From the NCBI GenBank assembly GCA_965197415.1, contig OZ240207.1, positions 2,858,957 to 2,922,956 of the forward strand: a stretch of DNA of 64,000 nt. Reading direction: 5' to 3'. Source of the DNA: Dehalococcoidia bacterium. GTDB lineage: Bacteria > Chloroflexota > Dehalococcoidia > Lucifugimonadales > JAGWBF01. The first letter of the stretch is position 1; each line of letters opens with the position of its first letter. The position numbers and the translations under genes were made by a program. The notes under the pieces are model-generated. The model had not been told where the DNA came from, did no database searches, and saw only the letters and a program-made list of their open reading frames with translations. Positions 2,387-10,023 of this stretch are shown piece by piece.

Positions 2387-2700
2387 GCGTAGCCTCCTTG
2401 ACCACGTAATATCCTGCAGGCGCCTGCCTGCACTGACACTGGCCTAAAGGCCACACCGCTTTGCGGCGTGCGTGCGCATTACAGCACAGCTTAGTTGCAA
2501 TGCGCAAGTTTCCTTTTCATTCGGAATTTTCCAAACTGTCTTTCCCGTGGAAATATGCCGAAACGTCCCGTTCGCCTCTGGCGGGAGAAGGTTGGGCCGG
2601 CCCTGAGCTTGCCGAAAGGATGAGGGGGAACCTAGGACTGTCAGACAGCGCAACAGATAGCATGTGAGATTAGGAGGACCTTAGACCGGAATCCCCTGAG

Positions 2701-4038
2701 TTAAAGCTGAGGGAGGTACCGCTTGATCTCGTAGTCGGTGATTTGAGTGCGGAACTCGTTCCACTCAAGCTTTTTGTTCTCCAGGAACACCCTGAATACG
2801 TGGTCTCCGAGAGTCTCCTGGAGCAGTTCGCTGTTCTCGGCTAGCTTGATGGCCTCATGCAGGCTGCCCGGCAGAGCGGCTATCCCCCTGGCGGCTCTGG
2901 TCTCCTCGGACATGTCGAATACGTTCTCCTCGGTGGGCGGGGGAACTTCGTATTCGTTCTCGATTCCCTTGAGACCGGCCGCCAGCATCACGCTGAAGGC
3001 AAGGTAGGGGTTGCACGCCGGGTCGGGCGCACGGTACTCGATGTGCACCGAGTCCTGGCGTCCAGGTCTGTAGGAGGGGACGCGTATCAGGTCGGAACGG
3101 TTCTTCATCGCCCACGATATGTACATCGGCGCTTCGTGGCCTGGCGTCAACCTTTTGTAAGAGTTCACCCATTGGTTGGTCACCAAAGTGATCTCCGGTG
3201 CGTGGCGCAGCAGGCCAGCTGTGTAGAGCCGGCCGATTTGGGACAACTCCCCTGGGTTGTTCCGGTCAAAGAAGGAGTTGGAGTCCCCCTGGAAAAGGGA
3301 CTGGTGTACGTGCATTCCCGAACCGTTGACCCCTGGCAGCGGCTTCGGCATGAAGGTGGCGTAGACGTTGTTCTGGGAGGCCACCTCTTTTATGACCAGC
3401 TTGCTGGTGGTGACGTTGTCCGCCATAGTGATGGCATCGGTGTACTGAAGGTCGATTTCATGCTGTCCCGGCGCCGCTTCATGGTGGGAATACTTGACCG
3501 GAATTCCCATTTCGGCCAATGTCAGGACCGTCTCGCGCCGCAGGTCAGTTCCCAGTTCCATCGACAATTGGTCGAAATAGCCGCCTTTGTCGATGGCCTT
3601 GGGGTCTTCGGTTCCCGTGAGATAGAAGTATTCGAACTCCGGGCCAACGTAGTAAGTGAACCCGAGGTTGGATGCCTTCCTCACGTTCCTCTTAAGGACG
3701 AATCTTGGGTCTCCCTCGAACGGATCGCCAGTGGGCTTGTGTATGTCGCAGAACATCCTCGCCACCGAGTTCTGACGAGGCCGCCAACTGAGTATGCGGA
3801 ACGTGGTTGGGTCGGGTCGGGCCACCATGTCGCTTTCGTCTATGCGAACGAAACCCTCGATGGACGAGCCATCAAACGCAACCCCTTGCTCCAGGGCATC
3901 CTCAAGCTCCTCCACGGTGATGGCGAAACCCTTAAGGGCGCCCAGGATGTCGCAGAACCAGAGCCGGATGAACTTTACGTCGTTCTCCCGCGCAGTCCTG
4001 AGGACAAACTCTTTCGCTTCATCTTCGGCCCAAGTCAT
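2701..4038 (-). CDS. glnA: Glutamine synthetase type I, alpha-like form (445 aa, no adenylylation Tyr)
   Basis: Full-length GS-I-like translation (FDGSSIEGF, MPKPLPGVNGSGMHVHQS, NSYKRL, RAPDPACNPYL). The position of the adenylylation motif reads NVFDMS (Phe, not Tyr). Confidence 0.93.
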   Translation of the reverse strand: MTWAEDEAKEFVLRTARENDVKFIRLWFCDILGALKGFAITVEELEDALEQGVAFDGSSIEGFVRIDESDMVARPDPTTFRILSWRPRQNSVARMFCDIHKPTGDPFEGDPRFVLKRNVRKASNLGFTYYVGPEFEYFYLTGTEDPKAIDKGGYFDQLSMELGTDLRRETVLTLAEMGIPVKYSHHEAAPGQHEIDLQYTDAITMADNVTTSKLVIKEVASQNNVYATFMPKPLPGVNGSGMHVHQSLFQGDSNSFFDRNNPGELSQIGRLYTAGLLRHAPEITLVTNQWVNSYKRLTPGHEAPMYISWAMKNRSDLIRVPSYRPGRQDSVHIEYRAPDPACNPYLAFSVMLAAGLKGIENEYEVPPPTEENVFDMSEETRAARGIAALPGSLHEAIKLAENSELLQETLGDHVFRVFLENKKLEWNEFRTQITDYEIKRYLPQL

Positions 4039-4117
4039 AACCGATTCTCCGGTAGAGGTCTCCGATTGGGGAATATTGGGTTACGTATCGAGGATTGGCC
4101 GTCGCCAGGGATAAAGT

Positions 4118-4156
4118 GCGGCAGGCTTGGGATTAGGACCCCGTAGGGCCTGCCGC
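4118..4156 (-). terminator. GC-rich hairpin downstream of the 474-aa glnA (9-bp stem GCGGCAGGC/GCCTGCCGC)
   Basis: Perfect 9-bp inverted repeat at 4118-4126 / 4148-4156. On the minus strand it is followed by ACTTTATCC. It lies about 50 nt past the upstream gene's stop. Confidence 0.4.
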
Positions 4157-4160
4157 AACG

Positions 4161-4189
4161 ATTCTATTGACTGGCGCAGGTCGTGTCAA
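4161..4189 (-). promoter_or_regulatory. Sigma70-type promoter candidate for the 445-aa glnA
   Basis: The minus strand reads TTGACA (4189-4184), a 17-nt spacer, then TAGAAT (4166-4161). Confidence 0.5.
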
Positions 4190-4207
4190 TTTGGACGCCG
4201 AGTCGGG

Positions 4208-5632
4208 CTAGGCGTCGAAGTACATGAAGAACTCATACGGGTGGGGCCGTAGCCTGATGTTGTCCAGGTCGCCCTTCTTGTAGTCCAACCAGGTTTCAAT
4301 CAGGTCCTCGGTGAACACGCCGCCCCGCAACAGGAACTCGTAGTCGTTCTCCAGCGATGCCAGGGCCTCGTCCAAAGAGCCGGGCACCTGCCGTATCTTG
4401 GCAAGCTCTTCGGGCGGCAACTCATACAAGTTCTGGTCCACGGGGTCGGGCGGCTCTATTTCGTTTATGACTCCGTCGATCCCCGCCATCAGCATAGCCG
4501 AGAACGCTACATATGGGTTGCAGGCGGGGTCGGGTGCGCGGAACTCCAGCCTTCGGGCTGCCGGACTGGCAGAGTAGGTCGGGATGCGGATGCACGCCGA
4601 GCGGTTCCGCACGGAGTAGACCAGGTTCACGGGAGCCTCGAAACCTGGCACCAGCCGCTTGTAGCTGTTGGTGGTCGGGGCTATGAAGGCCAGTAGAGCC
4701 GGGGCGTGCTGGAGCAGGCCGCCGATGTAATGGCGGCAGGTGGCGCTGAGCATAGCGTAGCCGTTGGCGTCGTAGAAGAGGTTCTGCCCTTCCCTCCAAA
4801 GACTCTGGTGGGTGTGCATTCCTGTGCCGTTGTCGCCGAACAGGGGTTTGGGCATGAAGGTCGCCACCTTGCCGTACCTGTGTGCAACGTTCTTGACCAC
4901 GTACTTGAGTATCGTGACGGTGTCCGCCATTTTGGTCAGGCTGTCGAAGCGGACGTCGATCTCAGCCTGTCCCGCCGTAGCGACCTCGTGGTGGTGTTTC
5001 TCGACGATGATGCCGAACCGCTCTATTTCCTGAACGGCCTCCGTGCGTATGTCCTGGAAGGTGTCGAACGGGGGCGTCGGGAAGTAGCCTTCCTTGTGGC
5101 GAGGCCTGTAGGCCAGGTTGCGGCCACCGTCCACTGTACCGGGCTGGCCTGAGTTCCATATCCCTTCATCCGAATCGATGAAGTAGTAGCCTTCATTGCT
5201 GGTCTGGTTGAACCTGGCCGAGTCGAAGATGAAGAACTCCGGTTCCGGCCCCCAGTAGCTTACGTCGGCAATGCCGGAACTCTTGAGGTACTCCTCCGCC
5301 TTGTGGGCGACGTTGCGCGGGTCCCGGGTGAAGGTGTCCCGCGTCACCGGGTCCAGGATGTCGCAAATCATGGTCAAGGTCGGCGCCTTGAAGAAGGGGT
5401 CCATGTTGGCGGTGGTCGTGTCGGGGATGAGAAGCATGTCGCTCTCGTCGATGGACTTGAAGCCGCGAATGCTGGACCCGTCGAACCCGTAACCCTCAGC
5501 CAGGTTGTCCTCGCTAAGCTCGCTCAAGGGAATGGAGACGTGCTGGAAGGTGCCCGGCAGGTCCGTGAACTTCAGGTCGATGATCCCTATCTTGTTGTCT
5601 TTGGCGTGTCTAACAACTTCTTCCGGGGTCAT
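4208..5632 (-). CDS. glnA: Glutamine synthetase type I, beta-like form (474 aa) with adenylylation-site motif
   Basis: GS-I motifs (FDGSSIRGF, MPKPLFGDNGTGMHTHQS, NSYKRL, RAPDPACNPYV). 'DQNLYELPPEE' matches the NLYDLP adenylylation loop of GSI-beta. Confidence 0.95.
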   Translation of the reverse strand: MTPEEVVRHAKDNKIGIIDLKFTDLPGTFQHVSIPLSELSEDNLAEGYGFDGSSIRGFKSIDESDMLLIPDTTTANMDPFFKAPTLTMICDILDPVTRDTFTRDPRNVAHKAEEYLKSSGIADVSYWGPEPEFFIFDSARFNQTSNEGYYFIDSDEGIWNSGQPGTVDGGRNLAYRPRHKEGYFPTPPFDTFQDIRTEAVQEIERFGIIVEKHHHEVATAGQAEIDVRFDSLTKMADTVTILKYVVKNVAHRYGKVATFMPKPLFGDNGTGMHTHQSLWREGQNLFYDANGYAMLSATCRHYIGGLLQHAPALLAFIAPTTNSYKRLVPGFEAPVNLVYSVRNRSACIRIPTYSASPAARRLEFRAPDPACNPYVAFSAMLMAGIDGVINEIEPPDPVDQNLYELPPEELAKIRQVPGSLDEALASLENDYEFLLRGGVFTEDLIETWLDYKKGDLDNIRLRPHPYEFFMYFDA

Positions 5633-5703
5633 TGAAGGTTCCCTCCTGTTGGATTTGCTTTCCGATATAGGGCATTTTGGAACAGGACCGTCCCCAGGGG
5701 CGT

Positions 5704-6957
5704 CTATTCCTCTTCATCCCCCGACCCTCCGGCGATGCCCACTATGGACTCGTCGATGGGGACGTAGGCTTCCTCTCCATGCTGAGACAGGTCCAACCCC
5801 TCTTCCTCTTGGGACTCATCGGCCCTGATGCCGAGGGTGTACTTGATGGCGACGAGTATCACGGCGGTGGTGACCAGCGCCCATCCCCAGGTGGCGCCTA
5901 TTCCAGCCAACTGGTACAGGACCTGCTCCCCTCGGGTGACGCCTTCCGCCAGTCCTCCAAACCCTATTCCTACGAATAGGCCGGTTGCCAAGGCGCCCCA
6001 AGTGCCTCCCATTCCGTGGACGCCCCAGACGGCCAGAGCATCGTCAACCTTGAGTTTCAGCAAAAGCTCGACGGCGCCATAACAGATGACCCCCGCGCCC
6101 AGGCCGATGATTATGGCGGGCATGGGTCCGACGAAACCTGCGGCGGGCGTGATGGCTACCAGCCCGGCGACGGCCCCGGAAGCCGCTCCCACCAGGCTGG
6201 GCTTCTTTCCGAATATCCAGGACATGCCCACCCACGCGCACATCGCCATAGCCGTGGCGGTGTTGGTGGCCACGAATGCGTTGACCGCCGTGCCGTTGGC
6301 GGCCAGGGCGCTCCCGGCGTTGAACCCGAACCACCCGAACCAGAGCAAAGCGGCTCCTAGCACTATCATCGGAACGTTGTGGGGAGTCATCGGCCGTTGG
6401 CCGAACCCGATGCGCGGCCCAATGACGAACGCCGCCACCAGGGCTGCCACGCCAGCGTTGATGTGGACGACGGTGCCGCCCGCAAAGTCTAGGGCTCCAA
6501 GCTGGAAGAGCCATCCGTCGCCGTGCCATACCCAGTGGGCCACAGGAGCGTATACGATGGTCACCCACAGTATGGTGAAGATCACGAAGGCGCTGAATTT
6601 CATACGCTCGGCGAATGCGCCGGTTATCAGGGCGGGCGTGATTATGGCGAACATGGCTTGGAAAATCATGAACGCCTGGTCGGGTATGTTTCCGCCTTCT
6701 TCGGCGCTGACTCCGTTGAGTCCGAACAATTTCAGGTTTCCGATAAAACCGCCAATGTCATTGCCGAAGGCCAGGCTGTATCCCCACAGCACCCAGACTA
6801 CGCCCACGATGCCGATGGTCATGAAGCTGTACATTATGGTGGACAGGACATTCTTTTGGCGCGACAAGCCGCCGTAGAAGAATGCCAGCCCGGGCGTCAT
6901 AAGAAGCACCAGAGCCGATGACGTTAGGACCCATGCTGTATCTCCTGAGTCAATCAT
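5704..6957 (-). CDS. amt: Ammonium transporter (Amt family), 417 aa
   Basis: N-terminal 'DTAWVLTSSALVLLMTPGLAFFYGG', 11-12 TM segments and a 'VHGMGGTWGAL' region. SD AGGAGG before the ATG. Confidence 0.93.
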   Translation of the reverse strand: MIDSGDTAWVLTSSALVLLMTPGLAFFYGGLSRQKNVLSTIMYSFMTIGIVGVVWVLWGYSLAFGNDIGGFIGNLKLFGLNGVSAEEGGNIPDQAFMIFQAMFAIITPALITGAFAERMKFSAFVIFTILWVTIVYAPVAHWVWHGDGWLFQLGALDFAGGTVVHINAGVAALVAAFVIGPRIGFGQRPMTPHNVPMIVLGAALLWFGWFGFNAGSALAANGTAVNAFVATNTATAMAMCAWVGMSWIFGKKPSLVGAASGAVAGLVAITPAAGFVGPMPAIIIGLGAGVICYGAVELLLKLKVDDALAVWGVHGMGGTWGALATGLFVGIGFGGLAEGVTRGEQVLYQLAGIGATWGWALVTTAVILVAIKYTLGIRADESQEEEGLDLSQHGEEAYVPIDESIVGIAGGSGDEEE

Positions 6958-7010
6958 GACAGCCTAACCCTCCTTTCCGTGTTCCCCTTAATGTTTTTCT
7001 CCGACAAGCA

Positions 7011-7044
7011 ACCCAGTCCATACCCGCAGGGGCATGGACTGGGT
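7011..7044 (-). other. Strong hairpin between the 29-aa sORF and amt (11-bp perfect stem ACCCAGTCCAT/ATGGACTGGGT)
   Basis: Inverted repeat seen directly in the sequence. Only a weak U-run follows on the minus strand, so a terminator or attenuator role is unresolved. Confidence 0.4.
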
Positions 7045-7072
7045 CAACGTTGGACTTATCTTGGTTTGGGTG

Positions 7073-7162
7073 TTAGTTCTTCTGGGCAAACTTTCTCGGA
7101 AGCACAACCCACAACGCGAAGAGTCCTACGAACACGGCTCCCGCTAGAATTGCTGGCAACAT
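7073..7162 (-). CDS. Candidate 29-aa single-TM small protein (MLPAILAGAVFVGLFALWVVLPRKFAQKN)
   Basis: ATG at 7162 is preceded by GGAGG 7 nt upstream. One hydrophobic helix plus a basic tail. It sits between the two amt genes. There is no homology evidence. Confidence 0.3.
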   Translation of the reverse strand: MLPAILAGAVFVGLFALWVVLPRKFAQKN

Positions 7163-7205
7163 CTTTCCTCCATCTCTCCGCTGTCGTCTTGATATGCATT
7201 CTGAG

Positions 7206-7268
7206 GGCAATGTGTTTCGGACATTTTGCATCGATGTTAAATCTTTGTTACATCCGAAACACATTGCC
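7206..7268. promoter_or_regulatory. Perfect 16-bp inverted repeat with a 31-nt loop carrying phased TGTTAC-like hexamers
   Basis: GGCAATGTGTTTCGGA (7206-7221) pairs with TCCGAAACACATTGCC (7253-7268). Hexamers start at 7213, 7224, 7235 and 7246. TGTTA-N8-TTACA lies at 7235-7252. Confidence 0.5.
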
Positions 7269-7288
7269 TTGGTCTTGTTTCCGCTTGC

Positions 7289-8638
7289 TTAGAACGTTGA
7301 GGAAGGCGGCGCGTCCGTGACGTAGGTTTCAAGCCCATGCTCGGACTTGTCCAAGCCTTCGAGCTCCTCTTCCCTGCTCGCCCGCACACCGATGGTCGCC
7401 TTGAGGCCGAAGAACAGGGCGAAACCGGTGACTAGCGACCAGGCCACGACCACGGCCATGCTTATAAGCTGGGAGACGATTTGCTCAGCGTTCCCGTCCA
7501 CGAGGCCGCTCACGCCATTGTGGCCCGCGGCGAATATCCCCACCGCCAGGAGCCCCCAAAGTCCAGAGAATCCGTGGACTGCGATGGCCCCAATCGGGTC
7601 GTCCACCTTGAGGACCTTTTCCAGGAACTGGAGCGAGAGCATCATGATGGGCGCCGCTATTCCTCCGATGACCACGGCGGCCCAGGTGTCCACGTAGGCG
7701 CAGGGCGCCGTTATGCCCACCAATCCCGCCAGGGCCCCGTTGCAGGCCATAAGGATGTCGGCCTTGCCGGTCTGCACCAGTTTGATGTAAAGAGCTACGA
7801 CCGCTCCGGTGGCTCCGGCGAGGAGAGTGTTGACAGCGTTCAAACCGATGGTGTCGCTGCCGCCGATGTTGAACCCGAACCACCCGAAGAAGAGTATGAA
7901 GGTCCCGATTATCACGAAGGGCGTGCTGTGGCCGGATAGGATGTTGGCGGACCCGTCGGCGTTGAATTTGCCGATACGGGGACCCACTACCATGCAGGCT
8001 GCCAGCGCCAGAAATCCTCCGACGGCGTGGACTACGCCCGATCCGGCATAGTCAACCGCGCCAGGCAGGTTGATGGCTGAAAGGTCGCCCAACCATCCGC
8101 CGCCCCACACCCAGTGAGCGTACAGAGGGTATATGAGGGCGGTCACTATGAAGCTGTAAGCCATGTAGGTCTGGATTTTGGTCCGCTCGGCTATGGCCCC
8201 GGCCACGATGGTGGCGGCGGTGGCTGCGAACACCATTTGGAACATCCAGTCCACCCAGTTGTCATCCACAAGGAAGAAGTTGGACGTTCCGATGATTCCG
8301 GCCGCCGAGGCGCCGGTCATGAAGGCAAAACCGAAGGCCCAGAAGGACAGGGACGCGATGGCAAAGTCCATGAAGGACTTGGTCATATAGTTGGTGGTGT
8401 TCTTGGTGCGTATCAAGCCGGCTCCAAGGAAGGCGAAACCCGCTTGCATGAAGAACACCAGGAAGGCGGCTGCCAGGGTGATGAAAGCGCCCAGATTGCC
8501 GTCCACTACGTTGATGGCTTCCTGGGTCTCGTCGTCGACCTGTGCGAACGCCACGTTGTAGCCGCCGATGATGCCGACGGCCAACAACCCGGCCATCATC
8601 AGCACCAGCGTTCTCCTCAATGATACATGTTTCAACAT
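7289..8638 (-). CDS. amt: Ammonium transporter (Amt family) with N-terminal signal/anchor, 449 aa
   Basis: Amt-like TM pattern ('FMQAGFAFLGAGLIRTKN', 'VHGFSGLWGLL'). ATG at 8638 is preceded by AGGAGG. The upstream ATG at 8680 lacks an SD. Confidence 0.92.
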   Translation of the reverse strand: MLKHVSLRRTLVLMMAGLLAVGIIGGYNVAFAQVDDETQEAINVVDGNLGAFITLAAAFLVFFMQAGFAFLGAGLIRTKNTTNYMTKSFMDFAIASLSFWAFGFAFMTGASAAGIIGTSNFFLVDDNWVDWMFQMVFAATAATIVAGAIAERTKIQTYMAYSFIVTALIYPLYAHWVWGGGWLGDLSAINLPGAVDYAGSGVVHAVGGFLALAACMVVGPRIGKFNADGSANILSGHSTPFVIIGTFILFFGWFGFNIGGSDTIGLNAVNTLLAGATGAVVALYIKLVQTGKADILMACNGALAGLVGITAPCAYVDTWAAVVIGGIAAPIMMLSLQFLEKVLKVDDPIGAIAVHGFSGLWGLLAVGIFAAGHNGVSGLVDGNAEQIVSQLISMAVVVAWSLVTGFALFFGLKATIGVRASREEELEGLDKSEHGLETYVTDAPPSSTF

Positions 8639-8688
8639 GGGCTCCCCTCCTACAAACCGATATTGGCGACTCCATTTCATTCGAGAGA

Positions 8689-8749
8689 TGTTACGGGCCT
8701 GTTGCCGTTTTGTTACTCGTCTGTTTCATGGGTGTAAAATGATTGTTAC
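8689..8749. promoter_or_regulatory. Array of six hexamers (TGTTAC/TGTTGC/TGTTAC/TGTTTC/TGTAAA/TGTTAC) at exact 11-bp spacing upstream of amt
   Basis: Hexamer starts counted at 8689, 8700, 8711, 8722, 8733 and 8744. The array lies 51-111 nt upstream of the amt start codon in the amt/rmuC divergent region. Confidence 0.55.
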
Positions 8750-8787
8750 GCAAAACGCCGGCCCATAGCCGAAGGAGTCAATCCACG

Positions 8788-10023
8788 ATGGAATGGATAG
8801 TGGGAATCATCGTAGGCCTGATAGTGGGCGCAGCGGCGGCTTGGCTGGTTCGAAGCGCACGTGCCAAGGGCGAGGCAGCGTCCCTGCAAGCTGAGCATCG
8901 TGTAGCGGTAGCTGGACTGCAGGCCAAATTGGAGCAATCAGATGAGGCCCAGGCAATTCTCGACGCCGCCAAGGAGCAGTTAAGCGAAGCCTTCAAGTCC
9001 ACGGCCAGCAGTGCATTGCAAAACAATAATCAAGCCTTTCTTACCCTCGCCAACGAAAACTTGGGGAAGACTTTGGAGACTGCTAAGGGGGAACTTGACC
9101 GAAGACACAGGGAATTTCAGGAGTTGGTGAAACCCTTGTCCGAAAACTACGGTAAGCTCAACCCCCAGATCGAATCCCTGACCACAAGGGTAGAGTCTGT
9201 TACCAAAGCAACTACAGAGTTGAAGGGAGCGCTTACAGACAATCGCCAAGTCGGAAATTGGGGAGAAGTGCAATTGCACCGAGTTGTGGAGCTCGCAGGA
9301 ATGGTTGAGTACTGCGATTTTGCTGAGCAGTCAACAATCGAAGGGACGGGAAGCATCCCTGATATGGTCATCAACCTGCCCAACAAACGGGCCGTAGTGG
9401 TCGACGCCAAGGCGTCAACGGCTGCATTCATGGAATCGCACGAAGCCGCTGACGAAGACTCGGCCAGCGCAGCGTTGACTAAGCACGCGAATGCGCTGAA
9501 AAGGCAGGTTGACGACTTGGCTAAGAAGAATTACGGCGCCAAAGTTGACGGCGCTCTCGACTTCGTAGTGATGTTCGTTCCTGGAGACCAGTTCCTAGCG
9601 GCCGCCCTCAGAGCTAATCCCTACCTCATCGATTACGGAATGCAAAAGCGAATCGCCATCGCGACGCCCGTATCGTTGATTTCTCTCCTGTGGACCGTAC
9701 ACAGCGGCTGGCAACAGGAGCGGTTGGCCCGTAATGCACAAGAGATAAAAACGGTGGGAGACCAGATGCACAATCGGATGATGACCTTCATCGGCCACTA
9801 CCAGAAGGTGGGCTCCGAATTGGGAAGCGCCGTCACTGCATTCAATAGGTCAATCGGTTCCTTTGACCAGTCCGTAGCCCCCCAAGGAAGACGTTTTGCG
9901 GAGTTAGTGACAGGCAATGAGGATGACTTCCCCGAAATTACGGCTATTGACGAGGACCCAAGGACATCCCGGTACGTTCTCGATGGACCGACCGCGGAGG
10001 AAGGCAAACTGGCGGCTGACTAA
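8788..10023 (+). CDS. rmuC: DNA recombination protein RmuC
   Basis: N-terminal TM helix, a long coiled-coil, and a C-terminal nuclease-like region ('PDMVINLPNKRAVVVDAK', 'VMFVPGDQFL'). ATG 8788 follows AAGGAG. Confidence 0.85.
   Translation: MEWIVGIIVGLIVGAAAAWLVRSARAKGEAASLQAEHRVAVAGLQAKLEQSDEAQAILDAAKEQLSEAFKSTASSALQNNNQAFLTLANENLGKTLETAKGELDRRHREFQELVKPLSENYGKLNPQIESLTTRVESVTKATTELKGALTDNRQVGNWGEVQLHRVVELAGMVEYCDFAEQSTIEGTGSIPDMVINLPNKRAVVVDAKASTAAFMESHEAADEDSASAALTKHANALKRQVDDLAKKNYGAKVDGALDFVVMFVPGDQFLAAALRANPYLIDYGMQKRIAIATPVSLISLLWTVHSGWQQERLARNAQEIKTVGDQMHNRMMTFIGHYQKVGSELGSAVTAFNRSIGSFDQSVAPQGRRFAELVTGNEDDFPEITAIDEDPRTSRYVLDGPTAEEGKLAAD

Follow-up and report, generated by a model that had tools for sequence, protein, structure and literature searches.

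A predicted GlnR-type hexamer array enclosed by a clade-restricted inverted repeat between two ammonium transporter genes of a Dehalococcoidia bacterium

Between two ammonium transporter genes (amt1 and amt2) of a Dehalococcoidia bacterium, four phased hexamers are embedded in a perfect inverted repeat. Is this element a DNA operator shared with the hexamer array upstream of amt1, an RNA stem that separates the two amt cistrons, or both? A preliminary description of the locus raised these possibilities, and we followed them up in the window (the whole 64-kb stretch of DNA that was analysed) and in related genomes and metagenomes. The gene neighborhood of the array, comprising amt1, a small open reading frame (sORF), a hairpin, amt2, glnA and a second glnA, is entirely on the minus strand. 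We took the gene-strand (minus) reading of the hexamers as the biologically relevant one because all genes around the array are on this strand. The features are listed below in the direction of the genes, with negative positions counted from the predicted transcription start.

8689..8749, minus strand: six-site array upstream of amt1 (GTAACA, TTTACA, GAAACA, GTAACA, GCAACA, GTAACA; 11-bp spacing)
7289..8638, minus strand: amt1, ammonium transporter (Pfam PF00909, E 6e-119)
7253..7268, minus strand: inverted repeat, promoter-distal arm (gene strand: GGCAATGTGTTTCGGA), about -77 to -62, holding an inverted copy of site 4
7246..7251, minus strand: site 1 (a1-like), GTAACA, about -60 to -55
7235..7240, minus strand: site 2 (b1-like), TTAACA, about -49 to -44
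7224..7229, minus strand: site 3 (a2-like), GCAAAA, about -38 to -33, overlapping the -35 position; the weakest site (score 3.4)
7213..7218, minus strand: site 4 (b2-like), GAAACA, about -27 to -22, within the promoter-proximal arm
7206..7221, minus strand: inverted repeat, promoter-proximal arm (gene strand: TCCGAAACACATTGCC), covering site 4 and the greater part of the spacer before the -10
7198..7203, minus strand: predicted -10 hexamer CAGAAT (nAnnnT), 9 nt past site 4
7073..7162, minus strand: sORF of 29 aa, MLPAILAGAVFVGLFALWVVLPRKFAQKN, with the ribosome-binding site GGAGG at 7171..7167, 5 nt before the ATG
7011..7044, minus strand: hairpin after the sORF, with a 15-bp stem and a 4-nt loop, then TTGCTTGT
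5704..6957, minus strand: amt2, ammonium transporter (Pfam PF00909, E 1e-129), downstream of the sORF
4208..5632, minus strand: glnA, glutamine synthetase type I, 474 aa (Pfam PF00120 and PF03951)
2701..4038, minus strand: second glnA

On the plus strand, the intergenic hexamers are TGTTTC (7213), TTTTGC (7224), TGTTAA (7235) and TGTTAC (7246), spaced by exactly 11 bp. On the gene strand they read GTAACA-n5-TTAACA-n5-GCAAAA-n5-GAAACA. Re-reading of the sequence confirmed the spacing and the earlier observation that motif and strand are those of the 8689-8749 array. To compare the two arrays, a weight matrix derived solely from the upstream array was used to scan the window on both strands as 4 x 11 bp. 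The intergenic array scored 33.3, against 6.6 for the best unrelated site in the 64-kb window. In 300 locally shuffled windows the maximum score had a mean of 7.5 (sd 3.2, largest 19.7), and none attained 33.3. The two arrays therefore share a motif and an 11-bp phasing that are unique to them within the window. Together with the conservation of both arrays in relatives, described below, this supports the proposal of a common DNA operator, and the six-site array is, as judged from its sequence, a paralogous promoter module serving amt1. The distal arm gave no support for further phased sites (a fifth or sixth), as the in-phase hexamers there are GTGTTT and ACCAAG.

The intergenic array has the layout of a promoter that lacks one of its usual elements. 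No -35 match was found at the expected position, and a sigma-70 scan of positions 5500-9000 returned no promoter having both hexamers. The predicted -10 hexamer CAGAAT is weak, as is the -10 of the upstream (amt1) promoter. From this arrangement, transcription is predicted to start near 7191. The geometry of sites, -10 and start also accounts for a distance that had been noticed before and that we confirmed, the 51 nt between the end of each array and a start codon (7213 to 7162 and 8689 to 8638). The gene that begins at 7162 is the 29-aa sORF (7162..7073) and not amt2, which starts at 6957. The inverted copy of site 4 is unlikely to act as a divergent promoter, since the plus strand has neither a -10-like hexamer at the matching offset nor phased sites.

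We compared the amt-amt intergenic region with its counterparts in relatives. The closest genomes were Dehalococcoidia (Chloroflexota) MAGs, with Amt1 identities of 94% for L001 and 60-72% for L002-L009, L015 and L020. The order amt1, array, sORF, (amt2), glnA, glnA2 recurs in these relatives. L001-L007, L009, L013, L015, L020 and L068 have a four-site array directly after amt1, and four- or six-site arrays also occur upstream of amt1. The 17-mer GTAACAAAGATTTAACA is common to the window, L001, L003, L007 and L009, and a metagenome scan with the pattern GTAACAAAGATTTAACA-N16-GNAACA recovered 49 further loci that carry it. In total, the four-site array recurs in 51 distinct sequences from Dehalococcoidia/SAR202.

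Site 1 is GTAACA in 51/51 distinct arrays, where it is fixed by the search pattern, and it is also unchanged within the window clade. Site 4 is GTAACA or GAAACA in 50 of the 51. Site 3 is degenerate in relatives (GCAACA, GACGAT, TTAAAT and others). Positions outside the search pattern are conserved as well: downstream of site 4, the A at +11 and the T at +15 persist over the 51 arrays, and nearly all of them have a -10-like nAnnnT 9 nt after site 4 and no -35. In the window clade, variation in the two arrays is limited to 7 columns, every one of them in a spacer and none in a hexamer. The 8689-8749 array is likewise kept in L001, L134, L136 and L139, with substitutions confined to the spacers. 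Array, -10 and sORF are thus conserved together over many Dehalococcoidia/SAR202 loci. The gene context in the window and in relatives is that of nitrogen assimilation (amt, glnA, PII and glutamate-synthase subunits).

The array closely resembles a known element from another phylum. In Actinobacteria, the GlnR cis-element consists of an a site (gTnAc) and a b site (GaAAC) six bases apart, with the core GTAAC and usually two boxes (PMC10235972, PMC5826061). GlnR occupies these sites as four head-to-tail protomers around a non-optimal -35; the a2 site is atypical and dispensable (PMC10235972, PMC5826061). The S. coelicolor amtB promoter has three GlnR boxes, that is six sites (PMC10235972, PMC5826061), and the GlnR motif from M. 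smegmatis ChIP-seq is Gn2AC-n6-GnAACA (PMC3662644). The sites of both arrays in the window agree with these consensus sequences (gTnAc / GaAAC; Gn2AC-n6-GnAACA). They are also direct repeats with 6-nt gaps between the 5-mers and comprise at least two boxes, the 11-bp period running over 4 + 6 sites. The likeness to the boxes at amtB/glnA in S. coelicolor, M. smegmatis and M. tuberculosis (structure 8HIH) extends to the GTAAC/GAAAC(A) units, the four or six sites, which are predicted to straddle a non-consensus -35 upstream of a -10, the weak a2-equivalent, and amt and glnA as the predicted targets. The three-box layout of S. coelicolor amtB corresponds to the six sites of 8689-8749. In contrast to the actinobacterial boxes, the array described here is in a member of the Chloroflexota (Dehalococcoidia), and its first gene is a 29-aa membrane sORF in a cluster without glnK or glnD. 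It also lies inside an operon-like cluster, with site 1 only 37 nt past the amt1 stop codon, and is wrapped in a 16-nt inverted repeat that is not described in the GlnR-box literature examined.

A tblastn search with PhoB found no OmpR-type gene in the 64-kb window. In five related loci (L012, L013, L103, L087 and L141), OmpR-type genes adjoin the arrays. Those for which we give positions or gene order are as follows.

L012, 4685-5386: OmpR-type gene, then an array, the sORF and amt; another array precedes the regulator gene itself
L013, 3041-3715: OmpR-type gene
L103, 2205-2873: OmpR-type gene directly before an array and amt
L141, gene order: glutamate-synthase subunits, NrpR-like, GlnR-like, array, amt, array, small ORF, amt, PII, glnA, glnA

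The best solved-structure matches of these neighboring regulators were the GlnR entries 8HIG, 8HIH and 8HML. The L012 regulator matched GlnR structures with an E value of 1e-31, against 6e-22 for RegX3, the next family. A GlnR structure was also the top match for L013, and for L103 GlnR and RegX3 tied, although its DNA-binding domain alone matched GlnR best. Six of the seven DNA-contact residues of SaeGlnR are identical in L012 (K151, W177, R186, T187, H191 and R193) and the seventh, T149, is replaced by S; these residues are largely conserved in PhoB and across the family, so this match is weak evidence and does not discriminate specificity. Trans_reg_C was present in the regulators of relatives and the receiver domain was undetected or below the cutoff, an atypical state shared with actinobacterial GlnR. 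The combination of a winged helix nearest to GlnR and an atypical receiver fits the GlnR family. Some homologues outside Actinobacteria match Pfam GlnR_1st, which L012 does not. NCBIfam has no GlnR model, and an annotated actinobacterial GlnR also matched nothing specific there. The GlnR-like family is very large in Dehalococcoidia metagenomes, and in Dehalococcoides mccartyi and others GlnR-like paralogues immediately precede nif operons, where the 11-bp arrays are weaker. GlnR-like genes are thus physically linked to such arrays in relatives, and we infer that the window's own genome encodes a GlnR-like regulator.

Taken together, these comparisons make it probable that the intergenic hexamers are sites for a GlnR-like regulator and form an internal, activator-dependent and probably nitrogen-regulated promoter for sORF-amt2-glnA. 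In the mechanism we propose, the four-site head-to-tail array would bind a GlnR-like regulator of the OmpR/PhoB family and, with the weak -10 CAGAAT (7203..7198) and no -35, would act as an activator-dependent promoter inside the amt1-sORF-amt2-glnA cluster. Under nitrogen limitation, four regulator protomers would occupy the sites at about -60, -49, -38 and -27 and bring in RNA polymerase in the manner of the actinobacterial GlnR transcription-activation complex. The transcript, starting near 7191, would then carry the 29-aa membrane sORF and amt2, and probably also glnA. For amt1, the six-site array 8689-8749 may play the equivalent role. Both the binding of the regulator to the array and activation rather than repression are predictions from sequence.

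The same geometry could in principle serve a different signal. In the OmpR/PhoB family generally, 11-bp direct repeats replace the -35, as in the pho boxes, and PHO direct-repeat units read GTTCACC or CTGTCAT. The arrays might therefore be bound by another member of the family, such as a PhoB/PhoP-type phosphate regulator or an orphan, a reading that we consider improbable. It gains from 11-bp direct repeats in the place of the -35 being a family-wide trait, from the lack of an OmpR-type gene in the 64-kb window, and from Streptomyces PhoP, which is reported to bind at overlapping sites in the amtB and glnA promoters (PMC3561978; PMC5826061). The E. coli PhoB boxes and class II OmpR-family promoters indeed resemble our arrays in their 11-bp tandem repeats taking the place of the -35 before a -10 and in head-to-tail protomers. 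However, the hexamer GnAACA equals the GlnR consensus and differs from the PHO units, there are four to six sites instead of the two of a pho box, the neighboring regulator is GlnR-like by best structure match in five loci, and every target gene belongs to nitrogen assimilation and not to a phosphate context. An operator for a MerR-type TnrA/GlnR regulator (TGTNA-N7-TNACA, Bacillus) or an NtcA site (GTA-N8-TAC, some 22 nt before the -10) is extremely unlikely. The preliminary description had pointed out the resemblance to the Bacillus sites, and both its nitrogen-gene context and the letters TGTNA...TNACA are real, with TGTTA-N8-TTACA present at 7235-7252. The spacing, though, is N8 and not N7, the motif consists of two adjacent direct repeats read on the other strand, and what is conserved over the 51 arrays is four direct hexamers at 11 bp with no 17-bp palindrome; the predicted regulator also belongs to a different family. 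The NtcA pattern is absent, as GTA-N8 is followed by TTA or GTA and never by TAC.

If the arrays are indeed GlnR-type operators, they extend a system that has been discussed for one phylum. In the papers examined, OmpR-type GlnR figures as the master nitrogen regulator of Actinobacteria, and our full-text literature search found no paper connecting OmpR-type GlnR to Chloroflexi, Dehalococcoidia or SAR202. Here, a predicted GlnR-type cis-element near-identical to the actinobacterial one, with GlnR-like genes beside it, appears across Dehalococcoidia and marine SAR202-like contigs. This suggests that the GlnR system is older than the split of these Terrabacteria phyla or was transferred between them. 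The arrays also offer a handle for reconstructing nitrogen regulons from sequence alone in abundant, mostly uncultured bacteria.

The inverted repeat has a very different distribution from the array that it encloses. Its arms, GGCAATGTGTTTCGGA (7206-7221) and TCCGAAACACATTGCC (7253-7268) on the plus strand, are perfect 16-nt reverse complements with 31 nt between them and enclose the four hexamers, exactly as first reported. No other perfect local inverted repeat in the 64-kb window is as long. The arm sequence is unique in the window even when 3 mismatches are allowed, and this single-copy state rules out a dispersed repeat or REP element. An invertible promoter switch was rejected by reasoning, since recombinase-mediated inversion would need more than the 31 bp that separate the arms. 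Of the 51 arrays, only those of the window (16/16) and L001 (15/16) have an enclosing inverted repeat above chance, and one further case was marginal. The distal arm is absent from 48/51 array sequences; the 48 without an enclosing repeat include relatives with equally short amt1-array spacers. In L135 (Amt1 identity 78%), the array and the sORF are present and the inverted repeat is absent.

Within the window clade, the repeat is strongly conserved. All members (Amt1 identity at least 93%, recovered by protein search) keep it. The proximal arm has one T-to-C change in L001, L133 and L134, and the distal arm is unchanged at all 16 positions in every member. Variable columns number 0/16 in the distal arm, compared with 7/40 in the array spacers. 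Because no position of the distal arm varies although its immediate upstream neighborhood does, we consider the arm to be under constraint in this clade. The window and L001 differ at 32-44% of fourfold-degenerate sites and at 19-38% of positions in other intergenic stretches, and at only 2 positions in the 63-nt element. A weaker analogue in L006 (CCTATTTTGTTGC ... GCAACACATAGG) also encloses the array; site 4 is GCAACA there instead of GAAACA and the inner helix has changed with it, while its outer 5-mers differ from those of the window and yet pair. The inverted repeat is a separate layer over the array, limited to the window's own clade apart from a possible weak analogue in L006, and it is not needed for operator function. 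It is a small oddity in itself, a predicted protein-binding array with its flanks shaped into a perfect hairpin.

An RNA stem separating the amt cistrons, which the preliminary description had also offered, is possible. The predicted RNA fold of the window element is a 19-bp stem (-35.7 kcal/mol, z -3.7; z -6.1 in L001), which is strong and conserved in the clade. It would be present only in read-through RNA from amt1, because it lies upstream of the predicted transcription start. An intrinsic (Rho-independent) terminator does not fit: the stem is followed by CUCAGAAUGC and no U-tract, its loop measures 31 nt, and the terminator scan made no call. A known RNA family was rejected as well, since an Rfam covariance-model scan of 2500-9000 gave no match at 7163-7300 and only a sub-threshold SorX match elsewhere. 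Most array-bearing relatives lack the stem. Relatives with long amt1-array spacers (L002, L004, L005, L009 and L015) have a separate terminator-like hairpin there, and several short-spacer relatives have neither a terminator nor the inverted repeat, which implies that a hairpin is no general requirement. The single substitution of the L001 type in the arm is uncompensated, giving an A-C mismatch in sense RNA and a G-U pair in antisense RNA, a lone observation from which we draw no conclusion.

Intercistronic stem-loops and REP-type mRNA stabilisers, such as that between malE and malF, are stable hairpins without a U-tract that lie between cistrons. By analogy only, the stem described here, folding in read-through mRNA, could protect the upstream message; it differs from such stabilisers in being single-copy and in having as its 31-nt loop a predicted protein-binding array. 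We tentatively favor such a role for the inverted repeat, with the hairpin between the cistrons stabilising the amt1 mRNA 3' end or serving in its processing, and rank it above a second protein site and above a neutral by-product. A dual use of the element is a more speculative idea: as DNA it would be the GlnR-type activator array, and as read-through RNA a 19-bp hairpin that is cleaved or serves as a 3' barrier. If this were true, amt1 expression would be uncoupled from that of sORF-amt2-glnA, and the hairpin would replace the separate amt1-array terminator of relatives such as L002, L004 and L005.

Other explanations of the repeat give the arms a different role or none. That the stem-loop is the primary element (a terminator, processing site or riboregulator) and the hexamer phasing incidental is very unlikely. 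The perfect 16-nt stem extending to 19 bp, its fold energy, its conservation in the clade and the analogous stem of L006 (TGTTTC/GAAACA changed to TGTTGC/GCAACA, with different outer 5-mers) would fit this reading. Against it, the array exists in 51 variants of which 2 have an enclosing repeat above chance and 1 a marginal one, variation in the clade hits spacers and spares hexamers, neither a U-tract nor an Rfam match was found, and the L006 analogue folds no better than shuffled sequence (z -1.0). Alternatively, the arms could be inverted sites for a second dimeric or tetrameric protein that brackets or loops the GlnR boxes and represses or modulates the internal promoter. In the clade, the two arms are more strongly conserved than the array spacers, and the distal arm occupies -77 to -62, where the amt1 promoter has its extra box pair. 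We nevertheless regard a second protein as quite improbable: protein half-sites rarely require 16/16 identity, the arm sequence is found nowhere else in the 64 kb, and the centre-to-centre distance of 47 bp puts the arms on opposite helix faces. L006, moreover, keeps complementarity while its sequence changes, which favors pairing over sequence recognition.

A functionless repeat is doubtful but deserves more weight than these two. It could be a templated strand-switch copy of site 4 and its spacer, kept by the constraint that regulator and polymerase impose on -77 to -15. Its restriction to a narrow clade, the uncompensated state of the sole arm substitution, and the high conservation that the amt1-promoter array also has in its spacers and flanks between the window and L001 agree with such an origin. 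The invariance of the distal arm compared with the spacers and with the adjacent upstream sequence speaks against it, as do the lack of conservation in the equivalent region of the amt1 promoter and the correlated changes in the possible L006 analogue. The hairpin at the amt1 mRNA 3' end remains our preferred, if tentative, reading of the repeat.

The first gene after the predicted internal promoter deserves attention of its own. The position of the sORF makes it the first gene predicted to be served by this promoter, and glnA starts 71 nt beyond amt2, with which it is probably in one transcription unit. A small ORF is nearly always found downstream of intergenic-type arrays. In relatives, the sORF after the arrays occurs in 34 distinct versions of 26-42 aa, mostly 27-31 aa, with one outlier of 60 aa. 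Their consensus is M-E-x-x-L-A-A-G-A-F-V-G-L-F-x-L-W-V-V-L-P-K-K-L-x-R-K, and Pfam and NCBIfam gave no match for the sORF. We flag it as a conserved small membrane protein that is the first gene after intergenic-type arrays. This 27-31-aa protein could be a small-protein partner of Amt in GlnK-less clusters such as this one. A strict inverse relation between the sORF and PII fails, since L105 and L109 carry both. The hairpin at 7011..7044, between the sORF and amt2, is possibly a partial terminator or attenuator before amt2. It is kept in L001, and analogous TCCATGC...GCATGGA hairpins occur in L002, L004 and L068.

The first gene 3' of the intergenic array of predicted GlnR-like sites is a conserved small open reading frame (sORF). 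It encodes a single-helix membrane-type peptide of 27-31 amino acids with the core GLFxLWVVLPKK, for which no match was found in Pfam or NCBIfam. ORFs of the same type occupy this position in the comparison loci L002-L007, L009, L012, L015, L020 and L068 and in many of L081-L129, and some SAR202-like contigs (L083, L095) carry the array and the sORF alone, without a downstream amt or glnA. The sORF is followed by a hairpin that was also found, with a stem of the same type, in L001, L002, L004 and L068. It may act as a partial terminator or attenuator and so determine how much sORF is made relative to the transporter.

Features in the window, or in a comparison locus where one is named
7073-7162, minus strand: sORF
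7011-7044: hairpin with conserved TCCATGC...GCATGGA stem, then a T-rich stretch, between the sORF and amt2/glnA
about 4161-4189, minus strand: TTGACA-N17-TAGAAT, near-consensus sigma-70 promoter for glnA2 (second glutamine synthetase), between glnA and glnA2
L130, L131 and L132, each 6001-6720: GlnR-like paralogue directly upstream of nifH-nifI1-nifI2-nifDK
L087 9344-10342 (minus strand), L141 5975-6976 and L142 14361-14672: NrpR-like gene (PF01995)
L012 4598-4625: three-site array GCAACA-n5-GTAACC-n5-GAAACA upstream of a GlnR-like gene

The glnA2 promoter is kept in the close relative L001 and is followed by a long GC-rich hairpin. Because the glnA-glnA2 interval contains no GlnR-type array at this promoter, expression of glnA2 may be independent of the nitrogen regulator. 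At 5611-5679 on the plus strand, Rfam gives a sub-threshold match to SorX (23.3 bits; gathering score 46.6). This match overlaps the 5' end of glnA in antisense orientation and is most likely due to chance. The sole natural arm substitution in the inverted repeat around the intergenic array is in the proximal arm (L001, L133 and L134), where the sense RNA acquires an A-C mismatch and the antisense strand a G-U pair; this single event is insufficient for choosing between the two strands.

No PII/glnK gene was detected anywhere in the window (1-64000), unlike in 48 non-Chloroflexi amt loci (among L021-L080), where a PII gene adjoins amt. Some Dehalococcoidia loci (L013, L105, L109, L141 and L142) have PII 3' of an amt gene.

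The nif-linked GlnR-like paralogues belong to Dehalococcoides mccartyi and another Dehalococcoidia lineage, and weaker 11-bp arrays (TTAACA-n5-GAAACA-n5-GAAATC) precede both nifH and the nif-linked regulator gene. Within large nitrogen-assimilation clusters, the NrpR-like gene, a member of an archaeal nitrogen repressor family, adjoins the GlnR-like gene, which suggests that two regulators act on the same genes. In L012, the position of the three-site array upstream of the GlnR-like gene itself suggests autoregulation.
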